54,333 nucleotides of DNA from positions 1 to 54,333 of IMG/VR virus record IMGVR_UViG_3300028597_000016; one strand, written 5' to 3'. The stretch comes from a virus (taxonomy: Duplodnaviria > Caudoviricetes). The position numbers and the translations under genes were made by a program. The notes under the pieces were generated by a model. It searched no databases. It was not told the DNA's origin and worked only from the letters and a program-made list of their open reading frames with translations. This document shows, in pieces, positions 73-12,818 of this stretch; the first letter of the stretch is position 1; every line of letters starts with the position of its first letter.

Positions 73-144
73 CAGCCGTGCACTCCCGTCGTCGTGCTGC
101 CCCTCGACAGATGCGTACGACGACGGCGTGAGCATTACTGCGCA
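73..144 (+). ncRNA. Divergent copy of early-arm hairpin family (CAGCCGTGCACTCC-stem-TGAGCATTACTG)
   Basis: Stem CCGTCGTCGT/ACGACGACGG flanked by segments resembling those at 1896 and 4739. Confidence 0.4.
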
Positions 145-188
145 GTTGACCCCTACAACCATCGCCCTCAAATCCCCGAGGAGGAGCC

Positions 189-458
189 ATGTACTACCGC
201 GCGCCCGTAACCCTCACCAAGGACGACTGGGAGCCCCTGTGGTACCTCACGCCCGCCGGAGAGGCCGTCAAGGTCATGGGCACCTTCGCGATCACCCGGG
301 TGGACGCAACTCACCCGTACCACACCTACTCGTGGTGCCGGGTGAGCCAGCGCTCCATCCCGACCAACGCCACCTGGCTGAAGCCCAATACCCGCGTCTT
401 CCTGTCCGACAAGCGGCTCTACTCCCGAGACCCCAAGGAGCGCACCTACCATGGCTGA
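189..458 (+). CDS. Hypothetical phage protein
   Basis: GAGGAG RBS, ATG, overlaps next gene. Confidence 0.75.
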   Translation: MYYRAPVTLTKDDWEPLWYLTPAGEAVKVMGTFAITRVDATHPYHTYSWCRVSQRSIPTNATWLKPNTRVFLSDKRLYSRDPKERTYHG

Positions 459-957
459 CCCCACTCCGACCCTGACCACGCTCCGCACGCTGGTCAACGC
501 CTGGAACACCGACGACTTGGCCGTACTGGACTCGCCCCGGCTGATGGACGCCATGGTCGAGGCGTTCGAAGCCTTGGACGAGCACCTGGCCCGTGGTGGC
601 GAACTGCCCGACCAGTGGCAGGAAGCGCAAGAGGAAGCCACCCGGCGCGCCCAGCCCTCGGTCATCGGATCGGCGTACGTGCTGAACAGCCCACCGTCGG
701 ACACCAACCGCATCCCGGTCCGGACCTACCGCGACGCCGGGCTGTTCACCGAGGACTACACATACCACCGCATTCTTAGCTGTCGGAACCACCCCCACCT
801 GCGGTGGAGCACCAAGAACCCCTACACGCGCTCGGTCTTCCCCTTCCCGACGAACATGCAGACCCTGGCGGACGTCGACGAGTGCACGTGCCCCCTCGAC
901 GACGCCACGGTCATCAGGGATGCCCACTGGCCCGGACCACCGGCCACCACCCACTAG
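451..957 (+). CDS. Hypothetical protein with N-terminal 'LDExLxxGGxLPxxW' domain
   Basis: Coupled ORF; motif shared with 1004..1300. Confidence 0.75.
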   Translation: MADPTPTLTTLRTLVNAWNTDDLAVLDSPRLMDAMVEAFEALDEHLARGGELPDQWQEAQEEATRRAQPSVIGSAYVLNSPPSDTNRIPVRTYRDAGLFTEDYTYHRILSCRNHPHLRWSTKNPYTRSVFPFPTNMQTLADVDECTCPLDDATVIRDAHWPGPPATTH

Positions 958-1003
958 CCCCTTCCCGGCCCTGAGTAGGCCACAGCAGAGAGAGAACCCA
1001 GCC

Positions 1004-1300
1004 ATGGACCCCAACGCCACACTCCAACGCATTCGCGAGCTACAGAACGACCTGAGCCACACGCGCAGCTACGAGAGCGCCGCCGGTCTCGCAGCCGAAC
1101 TCGCCGACGCCGTTCAGGATCTGGACGAATGGCTCAAAAAGGGCGGGTACCCGCCCCGCGACTGGGAGAAACCGGTGATCTCGGCCTACGAGACCGGAAC
1201 CAAGGCCGCGACCCAGCACGAGGCGTTCGACCGGGGCTACATCCTCGGGGCCAAGCACGAAGCCGAGCGCCGTGACCAGCAATTCAAGGACGTGCGATGA
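1004..1300 (+). CDS. Small actinophage-type protein (MDPNATL...LDEWLKKGGYPPRDW)
   Basis: ATG after GAGAACCC motif; paralogous motif to upstream gene. Confidence 0.75.
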   Translation: MDPNATLQRIRELQNDLSHTRSYESAAGLAAELADAVQDLDEWLKKGGYPPRDWEKPVISAYETGTKAATQHEAFDRGYILGAKHEAERRDQQFKDVR

Positions 1301-1461
1301 GGCGCCCGGCCTACGTACCGACCGGTGGGTTCACCCAAGCCACCCAGTACACCCGGGACTACCGCACCTGGCGTGTGGGCCGGTGGGAGGGGTACACCAC
1401 CGCAGTCGTCACCAACCTGGGCATGCCCTACGGGTATAGAACCCCCAAGCCAACCCCCTGA
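1297..1461 (+). CDS. 54-aa hypothetical protein (MRRPAYVPTGG...)
   Basis: ATGA overlap with previous stop; hand-translated, below ORF-track cutoff. Confidence 0.55.
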   Translation: MRRPAYVPTGGFTQATQYTRDYRTWRVGRWEGYTTAVVTNLGMPYGYRTPKPTP

Positions 1462-1473
1462 CCTGCCGAAACA

Positions 1474-1491
1474 CAAACGGTATACCGTTTG
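1474..1491. promoter_or_regulatory. Perfect 18-bp palindrome CAAACGGTATACCGTTTG, operator-like
   Basis: Exact inverted repeat, AT-rich, intergenic. Confidence 0.45.
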
Positions 1492-1514
1492 CCGCCCCTT
1501 CCTGAGGACACACC

Positions 1515-10365: not shown

Positions 10366-10398
10366 CCCCTTCCCGTACCACACCGAAGAGGAGAAACG

Positions 10399-10710
10399 AT
10401 GAAGTTCCTGACCATTCAGCAGGGCCGGTACACCGACGGCCAGCTCCCCTACCCGCTCCACGCCAACGAAGACGGCTTCATCGGCCAGCAGGGCTTGTGG
10501 GACGGCAAGCTGTACAAGATCGTCGGCGCCCAGGACGCGGTCGACATCCAGCGGATCGACACGTACTGGCGTGAGATCTGGAAGAACCCCGAGCAGGCCG
10601 TCGGCAAGTTCCTGGTGACGGCCGACGTGGACGGCAACCTGTCGAGCTGGGAGTCCCCGGTCGAGTCGGTTCGTCCGCAGGAACTCGACGAATCCTTCAT
10701 GGAGGCGTGA
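10399..10710 (+). CDS. Hypothetical protein
   Basis: GAGGAG RBS. Confidence 0.78.
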   Translation: MKFLTIQQGRYTDGQLPYPLHANEDGFIGQQGLWDGKLYKIVGAQDAVDIQRIDTYWREIWKNPEQAVGKFLVTADVDGNLSSWESPVESVRPQELDESFMEA

Positions 10711-11120
10711 TGACCGAAATTTACGCAGATCTCGGAGGCGAGGTGAATGCGGCGCTCAAGGAGCGCATCTTGAGCTTGGAAGTAGGCCACAACACGGCGG
10801 TGTGGGTGCGCCTAGGTCCGCCGGTCGGCACCATCACGATGCCCGACGGCCAGGAAGGCGAGCTGATCGGCGCGTACGGCGAGCACATCGGCTGGGTCGT
10901 CCCCGGGACCGTGGTGGAACGCCAGGGCAGCGGCTTCGGCAACGCGACCACACGCCGCTACTACTTCCGCGCCGTGGTGGAGGACGGGGAGCGCAAGGTA
11001 CTGGTCAGCGGCCAGGTCCACAGCGTGATCGGCCTGGCCTACGTGAAACGCCTGGTAGACCGGGCGGACCCGAAGGCCAAGGACGCCCCGCGCGACAATT
11101 ACAGCGGGAGGTACCGATGA
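10707..11120 (+). CDS. Hypothetical protein
   Basis: GGAGG RBS, overlap. Confidence 0.75.
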   Translation: MMTEIYADLGGEVNAALKERILSLEVGHNTAVWVRLGPPVGTITMPDGQEGELIGAYGEHIGWVVPGTVVERQGSGFGNATTRRYYFRAVVEDGERKVLVSGQVHSVIGLAYVKRLVDRADPKAKDAPRDNYSGRYR

Positions 11121-11293
11121 CCTGGTACGTCTACCGTGAGGTCGAGCACGTCCCGGACGAATACGAGGCGTCCGACTGCGGCCACGATCACGAACATCGT
11201 GCCTTCGCACGTATCTGTGCCAGGAGGTGGGCGAGGGATCAGCTTCGTCACCGTCTGCCCCACAGCCTGCGGTTCGATGTCAGGAACCGCTGA
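11117..11293 (+). CDS. Small protein with CGHxH...C motif
   Basis: GGAGG RBS, ATGA overlap. Confidence 0.7.
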   Translation: MTWYVYREVEHVPDEYEASDCGHDHEHRAFARICARRWARDQLRHRLPHSLRFDVRNR

Positions 11294-11625
11294 TGCCCTA
11301 CGTCGGCTTCCACCCCGATATCGATCCCGGCTACGAACGTGCCCGAAAGGGCGGCAAGAAGATGCGTGGCCGGGCCATCGAGGTCATTCCGAATCAGTCG
11401 ATGTTGCAGCGTATTAGCAACGTCTACGGTGAGTACCTGGCACACGGCCGGTACTTGATCGGATCGTGGGAAGACACTCCGGCCGACATGCTCAATCCGC
11501 CCCCGCCCGACAAGGTGACTGCCTACGGGTGGTCAACGCACAAACCACTGGTAGTGTACTACCTGACTGCCTGGCCGACTCAGCCACAGCCGTGGCCGGA
11601 TACCGGCCCACCCCCGAGAATGTGA
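11293..11625 (+). CDS. Hypothetical protein
   Basis: TGATG coupling. Confidence 0.7.
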   Translation: MPYVGFHPDIDPGYERARKGGKKMRGRAIEVIPNQSMLQRISNVYGEYLAHGRYLIGSWEDTPADMLNPPPPDKVTAYGWSTHKPLVVYYLTAWPTQPQPWPDTGPPPRM

Positions 11626-11631
11626 GAACCC

Positions 11632-12552
11632 ATGACCAGTCCACGCATCAAATACGAGACGCGATGGATCACCCCTGACAGCGCCAAGGAGTACTTGGAG
11701 CTTCAGGTTGCCAACCGCTCGCTCGTCTGGGGCGTCGTCCGCAACTACGCCCGGGACATGCTGTCTGGAGACTGGCTCCAGAACGGCGAGAACATCAAGA
11801 TCAACCCCGACGGGTTCATGCTCGACGGGCAGCACCGCATGCAGGCCGTCATCCTGGCCGGGAAGATGTACGCCGACAACCCGGATGAATACGACGAGCC
11901 TTTCGAAGGCATGTTCTTCGAGTTCGCGCTCAACATCCCGGACGACGCCCGACAGTCCATGGACATCGGCAAGAAGCGCACTCTCGCCGACGAGATGGCC
12001 TTCGAAGGTGCCGAGAACTCGGGGCGTGTGGCTCCGATCGTGAGCTGGCACATGGCCTACCTGAATGGCAACTACACCAACGCTGGCGGCAGCTCCTACC
12101 GGCCGACTCAGGCCAAGGCGCTGGAGTTCTGGCGGGGGAACAAGAGCCAGTACTACACGACCATGCTGCGTGGTTATGACGCGACGCGGCAGGGTCTGGG
12201 CTCGACGGCGTCGATGGGTACGGCCTACCACATCCTGCGCAACAAGTTCGGCGACGAGATCGCCGACCGGTTCTGGGATCTACTGGTGACCGGCGCCAAC
12301 ATGCAGGTCGGACACCCGATCCTGCTGCTGCGCAACGTGTTGCTCCGGAAGAAGTTCAACCGGAAGACGACGTTCGCCCTGATCTTCAAGACTTGGAACT
12401 CCTGGATCGACGGCCGGACGCTGAAGGACGCGCCGTACTTCAAGACCGAGGTCACCAACAAGAACTTCCCGTTCCCCCGTGACCCTGCCGACAAGAAGGT
12501 GCCCAACCCCGACTTCGCCGACCAGGGCATCGAGCAGGAGGACGAGGAATGA
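11632..12552 (+). CDS. ParB/Srx-like (DGQHR) domain protein
   Basis: 'NR...VRNYARDM..G.W..NGE.I...DGQHRM.AV'. Confidence 0.8.
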   Translation: MTSPRIKYETRWITPDSAKEYLELQVANRSLVWGVVRNYARDMLSGDWLQNGENIKINPDGFMLDGQHRMQAVILAGKMYADNPDEYDEPFEGMFFEFALNIPDDARQSMDIGKKRTLADEMAFEGAENSGRVAPIVSWHMAYLNGNYTNAGGSSYRPTQAKALEFWRGNKSQYYTTMLRGYDATRQGLGSTASMGTAYHILRNKFGDEIADRFWDLLVTGANMQVGHPILLLRNVLLRKKFNRKTTFALIFKTWNSWIDGRTLKDAPYFKTEVTNKNFPFPRDPADKKVPNPDFADQGIEQEDEE

Positions 12553-12755
12553 GGTTCATCGGCTTCGGCGTGATGGAGCAGAACACGGTCACGGTCAACC
12601 TGACCCAGGAGGAGTGCGACCTGTTGGCCGATGGCATGCGAGATGGCTCCGCTGACTATCCGATCGAGTCGGAAGATGTCAGCATCTCCGGCCAGTTGAG
12701 CCAGGGCTTCCGGGCGCTCCACACGATCCTGGAGCTGAACAAGCAGGGGCACTGA
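12549..12755 (+). CDS. Hypothetical protein
   Basis: ATGA overlap. Confidence 0.6.
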   Translation: MRFIGFGVMEQNTVTVNLTQEECDLLADGMRDGSADYPIESEDVSISGQLSQGFRALHTILELNKQGH

Positions 12756-12818
12756 CCGGCCGGGCGCTCACGCCATAACGCACCCTGTGGTATCTCTGTG
12801 CGTGAGCGCCTGGCGCTC
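12754..12818 (+). ncRNA. Hairpin-family copy (GACCGGCCGGGCGCTC...TGAGCGCCTGGCGCTC)
   Basis: Long stem; 14/16 match to the conserved 5' flank. Confidence 0.5.

Follow-up and report, generated by a model that had tools for sequence, protein, structure and literature searches.

Irregular RNA hairpins with a conserved base and a covarying stem at early gene junctions of an uncultured soil actinophage

The early region of an uncultured phage raises the question of why similar imperfect hairpins return between its small genes, whether they act as RNA or as DNA, and what they might do there. The DNA concerned is the whole IMG/VR record IMGVR_UViG_3300028597_000016 (54,333 nt, linear, about 86% complete by estimate), referred to below as the window, which stems from an uncultured high-GC siphovirus of soil. 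A preliminary description of this DNA had proposed a family of four imperfect hairpins with conserved flanks and compensatory changes. Three of these copies hold (65–149, 1891–2057 and 4734–4829, all on the + strand), whereas the fourth (12749–12824) does not. Together with copies from two related contigs the family comprises nine members, which are best explained as a cis-acting structured RNA repeated between small genes of a long early transcript.

A fixed irregular base below a variable stem

All nine copies follow one architecture. A conserved irregular base, composed of two short helices (P1 and P2), an invariant unpaired CC/UA, a G·A opposition and a U/CU bulge, carries a stem (P3) of at least 11 bp and an apex of 12–99 nt, both of which are free in sequence and length. 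The base consensus reads GAnCGG/CCGnUC for P1, CC opposite UA, GCNC/GN'GU for P2, G opposite A, a C-G pair and U opposite CU. It was derived by eye on A2, a MAFFT alignment of the eight clear copies from which 65–149 was left out and in which the flanks and the first 11 stem pairs line up. Numbered by A2 columns, P1 is formed by G7-C163, A8-U162, C10-G160, G11-C159 and G12-C158, and P2 by G15·U155, C16-G154, N17-N153 and C18-G152. Above P2, G19 lies opposite A151, C20 pairs with G150, and U21 faces C148 and U149. P3 joins columns 22–32 to columns 137–147 and leads into the free apex. The copies, together with the doubtful one, are listed here with their scores in R1, a covariance model built from A2:

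65–149, + strand: copy 0, divergent member near the left end of the record, basal helices kept through compensated changes; 38.3 bits, E 1.3e-6 to 3.3e-6; fold z −2.7
1891–2057, + strand: copy A, conserved base, stem of at least 17 bp and branched 99-nt apical insert; 60.7 bits; fold −90 kcal/mol, z −3.5
4734–4829, + strand: copy B, best copy, orthologue of L055 4261–4362 with identical basal flanks; 85.7 bits
12749–12824, + strand: doubtful fourth copy directly after a stop codon, with flanks that merely resemble those of the family; 12.4 bits, E 0.86
L046 (1.3-kb contig) 557–636 and 1205–1285: two copies
L055 (9.2 kb of a 14.4-kb contig) 693–806, 1085–1186, 1868–1949 and 4261–4362: four copies

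Within copy B the parts of the element are distributed as follows:

4739–4753, + strand: base, 5' half; P1 4739–4744, unpaired CC 4745–4746, P2 4747–4750, G 4751 opposite A, C 4752, bulged U 4753
4754–4807, + strand: variable stem P3 and apex; 4754–4764 paired with 4797–4807
4808–4823, + strand: base, 3' half; bulged CU, G and A, P2 4812–4815, unpaired UA 4816–4817, P1 4818–4823

With R1, the eight training copies score 60.7–85.7 bits and are members, while the reverse strand of copy B gives a background value of 15 bits. The divergent copy proposed at 73–144 is a true member, as 65–149 is found at an E-value of about 1e-6 by this model, which was built without it, and the replacement of CGG/CCG by CAG/CUG noticed there proves to be a compensated change. 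The copy proposed at 12754–12818 fares differently. Its score lies below that of the reverse strand of copy B, and its plain 15-bp stem (15 nt, 93% complementary) is devoid of the internal loops of the family. It may be a decayed relative, but R1 does not separate it from background.

The two flanks noted in copies A and B, a 17-mer on the left and an 18-nt pattern on the right, are present at 1896–1912/2034–2051 and 4739–4755/4806–4823. Exact matches to the 13-nt core of the left flank are confined to positions 1900 and 4743 in 54 kb, and loose matches with up to three mismatches stay at chance level (74 found versus 78 expected). With three mismatches allowed, the right-flank pattern still has no match besides those at 2034 and 4806; taken alone it is weak, with at least two matches in 19 of 100 shuffles. 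Between these flanks the stems of copies A and B differ by compensated changes, as had been stated (three differing positions, two of them double changes), and the apical parts measure 99 nt and 28 nt, respectively. The arms 1911–1927 and 2019–2035 of copy A are 94% complementary.

The covariation on which the claim of compensatory change depends is present as a strong signal. In the eight copies of A2, pairing holds in 95.8% of 168 cells and double changes are seen at 10 of the 21 pairs, the counts being of cells in a family whose nine copies derive from three contigs and are partly paralogues. None of 500 shuffled alignments reached the A2 values on any of five measures, and moving the partner by one to three columns left 29–45% of cells paired. 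Inclusion of 65–149 gives 95.2% paired cells and 12 of 21 double-changed pairs, with additional compensated pairs in P1 and P2. RNAalifold, run independently on A2, returned the same helices and three further pairs, 13 of its 24 pairs being compensated. The idea of a family of imperfect RNA hairpins in intergenic positions, kept by compensatory changes and similar in kind to the early RNase III sites of T7, is thus strongly supported by both covariation and RNAalifold.

Compensated double changes affect eight of the 11 P3 pairs across the family, and two never vary. Compensation also extends into the conserved base, since pair 17-153 of P2 occurs as G-C (four copies), A-U (three) and U-A (one), and pair 11-159 of P1 as G-C (seven) and C-G (one). 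Together with further apical pairs, the 21 conserved pairs exceed two helical turns, and the loops CC/UA, G·A and U/CU are invariant or nearly so.

A second register of P2 can be drawn, in which, as proposed earlier, GAGC pairs with the upstream GCUC. This slide by +1 (CGCU with AGNG) keeps 94% of cells paired. However, it leaves the covariation of pair 17-153 unexplained, and the register chosen by RNAalifold, GCNC with GN'GU, is therefore preferred. The pairing of GAGC with the downstream GCUC can likewise be drawn, but is unsupported and is taken up below together with the idea of a switch.

Strand, descent and gene junctions

All nine copies run in the same direction as the genes flanking them. 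On the + strand, 11 cells of the nine copies are G·U pairs, including the one at the end of P2, which is kept in seven of nine; the other strand would give A·C. Moreover, the two conserved halves stand 50–120 nt apart at variable distance. In combination, G·U cells, orientation and variable spacing assign the structure to the RNA of the + strand and not to double-stranded DNA.

The related contigs were found through the gene downstream of copy A. Its product has 15 metagenomic relatives at 49–80% identity, and when the alignment of these relatives was used to scan JGI metagenome contigs, 15 loci were obtained, two of them, L046 and L055, with the hairpin element. L055 is syntenic with the window across the whole early region, at protein identities of 29% to 70%. 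The most informative comparison is between copy B and L055 4261–4362. Here the basal flanks are identical at 18 of 18 positions on either side (36/36 nt), the flanking proteins share 37% (upstream) and 29% (downstream) identity, and the stem is changed at four of 11 positions, with compensation. The base is thus under selection for its sequence, and the upper part, as far as these alignments indicate, is selected for pairing only. In addition, orthologous copies are more alike than paralogues within one genome, which argues for vertical descent under purifying selection and against recent spread or gene conversion.

Searches beyond these contigs gave only chance matches or none. In IMG/VR, exact matches to the flanks were found at 33 loci for the 17-mer and at eight for the right-flank pattern; none of them has the partner flank, and they are therefore regarded as chance. 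A strict gapped two-flank pattern had no match in IMG/VR, and a degenerate gapped pattern had nine loci, the best of which (21.3 bits in R1) is at chance level given the preselection. Among prokaryotes, represented by one genome per species, the degenerate two-flank pattern matched 24 loci with a best score of 26.3 bits, none of them showing the architecture. Protein-guided searches for related virus contigs returned one distant contig for gene 2078–2500, in which the element was not found, and none for gene 4850–5239; none was found with the AAA ATPase either, whether the query was a single sequence or an alignment. The family, previously uncatalogued, belongs to the early operon of uncultured soil actinophages that form a small group.

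Several established identities were tested. Rfam gave no match at the gathering score in the window and none at E ≤1 in positions 1–6000, L055 and L046. A tRNA-like element on the reverse strand was rejected, as ARAGORN finds nothing there and conservation stops at the flanks. By inspection, the CUGA of the right flank lacks the partner GA that a K-turn or box C/D motif would have. Stop-codon readthrough or a SECIS element was dismissed, since conservation resides in the base instead of the apex and copy A stands 20 nt away from its stop. A coding explanation was dropped, since the distance from element to ATG varies from 24 to 40 nt and the frame therefore differs.

Every copy lies between co-oriented open reading frames (ORFs). 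In six of the nine, the basal CGG/CCG directly adjoins the upstream stop codon (UAA in one case, otherwise UGA), the A of which takes part in a P1 pair; in copy B, for instance, the stop codon at 4738–4740 provides the outer pairs of the basal helix. In the other three, the stop lies 4 nt upstream (one copy), 20 nt upstream (copy A), or belongs to a gene cut by the end of the record (copy 0). Six copies are followed by the next start codon at 24–28 nt, two at 40 nt and one at 77 nt. The interval contains a tract rich in C, frequently CCUUCCC, and a GGAG ribosome binding site, which lies outside the hairpin structure. The neighbouring genes and motifs of copies A and B are:

4441–4740, + strand: gene upstream of copy B; 99 aa, no Pfam or PHROG match, 37% identical to its L055 counterpart
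4850–5239, + strand: gene downstream of copy B; 129 aa, no Pfam or PHROG match, 29% identical to its L055 counterpart
2078–2500, + strand: gene downstream of copy A; 140 aa, no known family
2065–2075, + strand: AAGGAGAACCC motif (ribosome binding site and spacer) ahead of the ATG at 2078
4839–4849, + strand: AAGGAGAACCC motif ahead of the ATG at 4850

The sequence AAGGAGAACCC and a start codon do follow both best copies, as reported before; what does not stand is a specific tie to the hairpin. At up to two mismatches the motif has 34 matches versus 12.45 expected. At up to one mismatch there are 12 sites, all on the + strand of the early arm between 2065 and 24686 (e.g. 2065, 4839, 5865, 9029 and 18177) and none in the structural arm; at least ten of these 12 best sites stand 0–5 nt before the ATG of a listed ORF. 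The motif is a general start-associated motif of the early arm, not a part of the hairpin element. A scan of the + strand from 1 to 14000, limited to sigma-70-like promoters, found none, and the early genes are presumably transcribed as one operon.

Other structured elements occupy similar places. At 18122–18169 and 16913–16957, strong plain hairpins unrelated in sequence to the family lie between a stop codon and a C-rich tract with AAGGAGAACCC, so that an upstream hairpin seems to be a general feature of gene starts in the early arm. At 5744–5843 (+ strand), ARAGORN calls a 100-nt tRNA-Phe with good acceptor, D and T arms, in which about 32 nt replace the 7-nt anticodon loop; the Rfam tRNA model does not match it at E ≤1. 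A hairpin (5704–5740) directly precedes this element, and a GAAC..CCAAGGAGAACCCATG context follows it, as after copy B. L055 carries two + strand tRNA genes above the Rfam threshold (6089–6180, 46.7 bits; 7961–8093, 39.8 bits), with insertions in the anticodon region (31 nt instead of 11) and in the variable region (62 nt). At the place in the window that matches an L055 tRNA, after the AAA ATPase gene (8879–8958, + strand), only a weak tRNA-like T arm was detected (18.3 bits, E 4.1). Such insert-bearing or decaying tRNA-like elements between early genes may be processing points as well.

Possible roles of the element

RNase III cuts the intergenic hairpins of T7 early RNA. These signals (R0.3, R0.5, R1, R1.1 and R1.3) are likewise irregular intercistronic hairpins present in several copies on the coding strand, and in both systems a conserved sequence block adjoins an internal loop while the remaining parts vary. 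When folded here, the T7 intergenic regions gave an upper and a lower stem with an internal loop. As the T7 sites are the closest working analogue, endonucleolytic processing between cistrons is the favoured role of the present element, although tentatively and with somewhat less than an even chance. The conserved base would then be the recognition and cleavage module of a double-strand-specific endoribonuclease, most likely host RNase III, and the variable stem would supply the helix length that the enzyme requires. A cut in the loop region would separate the cistrons, leaving the upstream message with a protective 3' hairpin and giving the downstream message a defined 5' end 24–40 nt before its start codon. 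Enzyme and cleavage, like transcription as one operon, are inferences. It may further be speculated that the alternative hairpin of the 3' flank forms after a cut.

The likeness does not amount to homology, as the R1 model has no match at E ≤10 in T7 1–7000. Compared with the T7 sites the present element is GC-rich and longer, and it has three irregularities rather than one. Cleavage is textbook knowledge for the T7 sites and putative for the present element. Several points weigh against processing or against the strength of its evidence. RNase III requires little specific sequence, and a base of 30 nt that is invariant including its unpaired bases would be no less suited to a binding protein with sequence specificity. 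In the T7 sites, upper stem and loop edge form the conserved block; here it is the base, with an apex left free at 12–99 nt. As the copies are partly paralogues, the covariation counts do not represent independent events. Finally, the element is dispensable at any given site, since its presence differs at orthologous junctions: it precedes gene 2078–2500 in the window and its version in L046 but is absent before the L055 homologue, and L046 carries a copy after its homologue of ORF 2427–2606, where the window has none.

The next reading, unlikely on balance, is that the element is bound by an RNA-binding protein of phage or host with specificity for sequence. In this case no cut would occur; the protein would read the unpaired CC/UA, G·A and U/CU, either tuning the downstream gene as at a translational operator or modifying the polymerase as in antitermination at nut or HK022 put sites. 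The invariance of the base over nine copies, kept at every position between orthologues whose neighbouring proteins have diverged so far, would follow directly, and the restriction of all copies to one strand of the first 5 kb, with the next start at 24–28 nt in six of nine, suits such a role. However, no candidate RNA-binding protein emerged from 26 early proteins, whose PHROG and Pfam searches were uninformative, and the ribosome binding site is not part of the structure. Moreover, recognition of nut and put sites takes place at the loop or involves two hairpins, in contrast to the free apex seen here.

The hairpins could also be passive, acting as terminators or attenuators without a U run or as barriers to 3' exonucleases that insulate the next ribosome binding site, with a base conserved merely by descent. 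Strong GC-rich hairpins directly after stop codons are what this reading, an improbable one, would lead one to expect, and the unrelated plain hairpins at 18122–18169 and 16913–16957 hold the same place before AAGGAGAACCC. Nevertheless, an intrinsic terminator was rejected: despite the GC-rich hairpin, a U run after the stem is found in none of the nine copies, and the terminator scan gave no terminator-like site on the + strand at the hairpin coordinates. In agreement with this, hairpins without a U-tract cause no termination by recombinant mycobacterial RNA polymerase, even when NusA and NusG are present (PMC3993855). Descent alone, in addition, does not account for an invariant base beside a stem fully turned over by compensated changes.

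Still less probable is a mobile or recombinogenic cassette that spreads among junctions, shuffles early modules and includes a stop codon of its own at the 5' edge. T4-type phages provide a precedent with their PeSL (promoter-early stem-loop) cassettes, described in PMC2839356 as repeated regulatory intergenic stem-loops in hyperplastic, variable early regions, linked to gene gain and loss. The present element shares with them the presence or absence at orthologous junctions, and in six of nine copies its edge is formed by the UGA or UAA of the upstream gene. In contrast, a PeSL combines a strong promoter with a working terminator, whereas neither a sigma-70-like promoter nor a U-tract was found here, and the stems covary instead of being near-identical. 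The closer relation of copy B to L055 4261–4362 than to its paralogues speaks for vertical descent, neither a transposase nor an obvious target duplication was seen, and mobility would leave the compensated stems unexplained.

The preliminary description had also considered a conformational switch and a small ribozyme, both of which now appear very improbable. A 5-bp hairpin (GAGNG and CGNUC around a UUAC loop) with 85% of its cells paired can be drawn in the 3' flank. However, this alternative hairpin contains no double-changed pair and its paired fraction equals that of the shuffles in 500 of 500. It is broken in L046 1205–1285 and by those changes in L055 1868–1949 that are compensated in the long hairpin, so that the switch is left unsupported. 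The right flank contains CUGA, a tetranucleotide that also occurs in the hammerhead core, but on inspection no GA follows CUGAN and GAAA is missing. Apart from the silence of Rfam noted above, the conserved part is a single irregular helix without junction or pseudoknot, which is poorly compatible with a self-cleaving ribozyme.

Actinophages are known for other repeats before gene starts. Start-associated sequences (SAS) and extended SAS (ESAS) of Cluster K, as well as repeats of the Microbacterium phage clusters EF, EG and EC, are likewise found in short gaps and in one orientation. As far as set out in the parts of PMC3203893 and PMC7302621 considered, these repeats join a motif conserved over the ribosome binding site, 13 nt long in the SAS of Cluster K and present at a subset of genes, to an inverted repeat further upstream, and no role is assigned to them. 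ESAS are pairs of 17-bp imperfect inverted repeats with a spacer of 4–13 bp directly ahead of the SAS, and an RNA hairpin found little support with its authors in the portion of PMC3203893 relied on, departures from the repeat being uncompensated. The motif AAGGAGAACCC resembles the SAS of Cluster K and EF phages in kind, with its one orientation and its position over the ribosome binding site, but differs from the Cluster K consensus given in the same portion of PMC3203893. The hairpin element is unlike ESAS, having arms 50–120 nt apart (2 × 11 bp of variable stem plus 12–99 nt of apex) and pervasive compensation. In TM4, a type phage for ESAS, R1 finds nothing better than 11.7 bits (E 1.1) in positions 1–50000, and the ESAS sites look like paired TTGAC-type motifs. 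Intercistronic hairpin signals of phages are a known kind, to which the present covarying family is a new addition.

Action at the level of DNA, where a protein or nuclease would recognise an operator, a cruciform or a hairpin of single-stranded DNA, would agree with the common view of actinophage intergenic inverted repeats as DNA sites and with the doubts of the ESAS authors (PMC3203893, portion as above), but is highly unlikely for halves that stand at variable distance and for nine copies that keep their pairing on the transcribed strand through compensated changes and G·U pairs.

The phage and the meaning of the family

The genome is organised in two converging arms. On the + strand, from 1 to about 34 kb, small uncharacterised genes are followed by replication genes encoding an AAA ATPase, an SNF2 helicase, a primase and a family A polymerase with a uracil-DNA glycosylase (UDG) domain. 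The − strand carries, from the right end, terminase, portal, protease, tube, tape measure and further structural genes. The portal protein shares less than 31% identity with its counterpart in any phage isolate, and phages of Mycobacterium, Rhodococcus and Gordonia come nearest; no DNA match to isolated phages was found for 1700–5300 and no protein match among them for gene 2078–2500. All hairpin copies of the window lie within the first 5 kb of the early arm, and the structural arm holds none.

Further features of the genome were noted along the way:

34215–34251: perfect 15-bp stem with a 7-nt loop at the meeting point of the two arms, probably a two-way transcription stop
30354–32801, + strand: family A DNA polymerase with an N-terminal uracil-DNA glycosylase superfamily domain (Pfam E 1e-24) before the 3'-5' exonuclease
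39538–40281, − strand: diverged array of 66-nt (22-aa) repeats inside the tape measure gene of 1438 aa
451–957 and 1004–1300, + strand: adjacent early proteins with a common N-terminal domain of about 65 aa, assigned to PHROG 865, an HNH endonuclease by its label, with E-values of 1e-13 and 1e-16; no Pfam match
1474–1491: perfect 18-bp palindrome, lower in GC than its surroundings, in the 53-nt gap between ORFs 1297–1461 and 1515–1712; a candidate DNA operator

A more far-reaching proposal, rather unlikely, would join the hairpins and the tRNA-like elements of the early region. The base might be the address label of a dedicated punctuation system of the early operon, in which a sequence-specific endonuclease or RNA-binding protein, encoded by an uncharacterised early gene or by the host, reads CC/UA, G·A and U/CU and cuts or marks every copy. 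RNase P and RNase Z would process the degenerate tRNA-like elements at 5744–5843 and 8879–8958 as well as the tRNAs with inserts in L055, and the stop-carrying cassette, gained and lost at junctions, would be a portable module for splitting operons. If this held true, the start-associated inverted repeats of several actinophage clusters may include similar RNA elements that have gone unrecognised.

Pre-gene repeats of actinophages have been catalogued for years without a mechanism, and an RNA structure has been doubted in the best-known case. The comparative signal in the present family is clear: the stem of an RNA hairpin is turned over by compensation while its irregular base stays fixed. 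This adds an uncatalogued RNA motif to the dark matter of phages. At about 80 nt it is small enough to probe RNA processing or protein recognition in high-GC Gram-positive hosts, in which operon punctuation and hairpins without a U run are poorly understood. Should the processing proposal prove correct, the element would be a compact tool with which cistrons could be split apart in operons engineered for actinobacteria.

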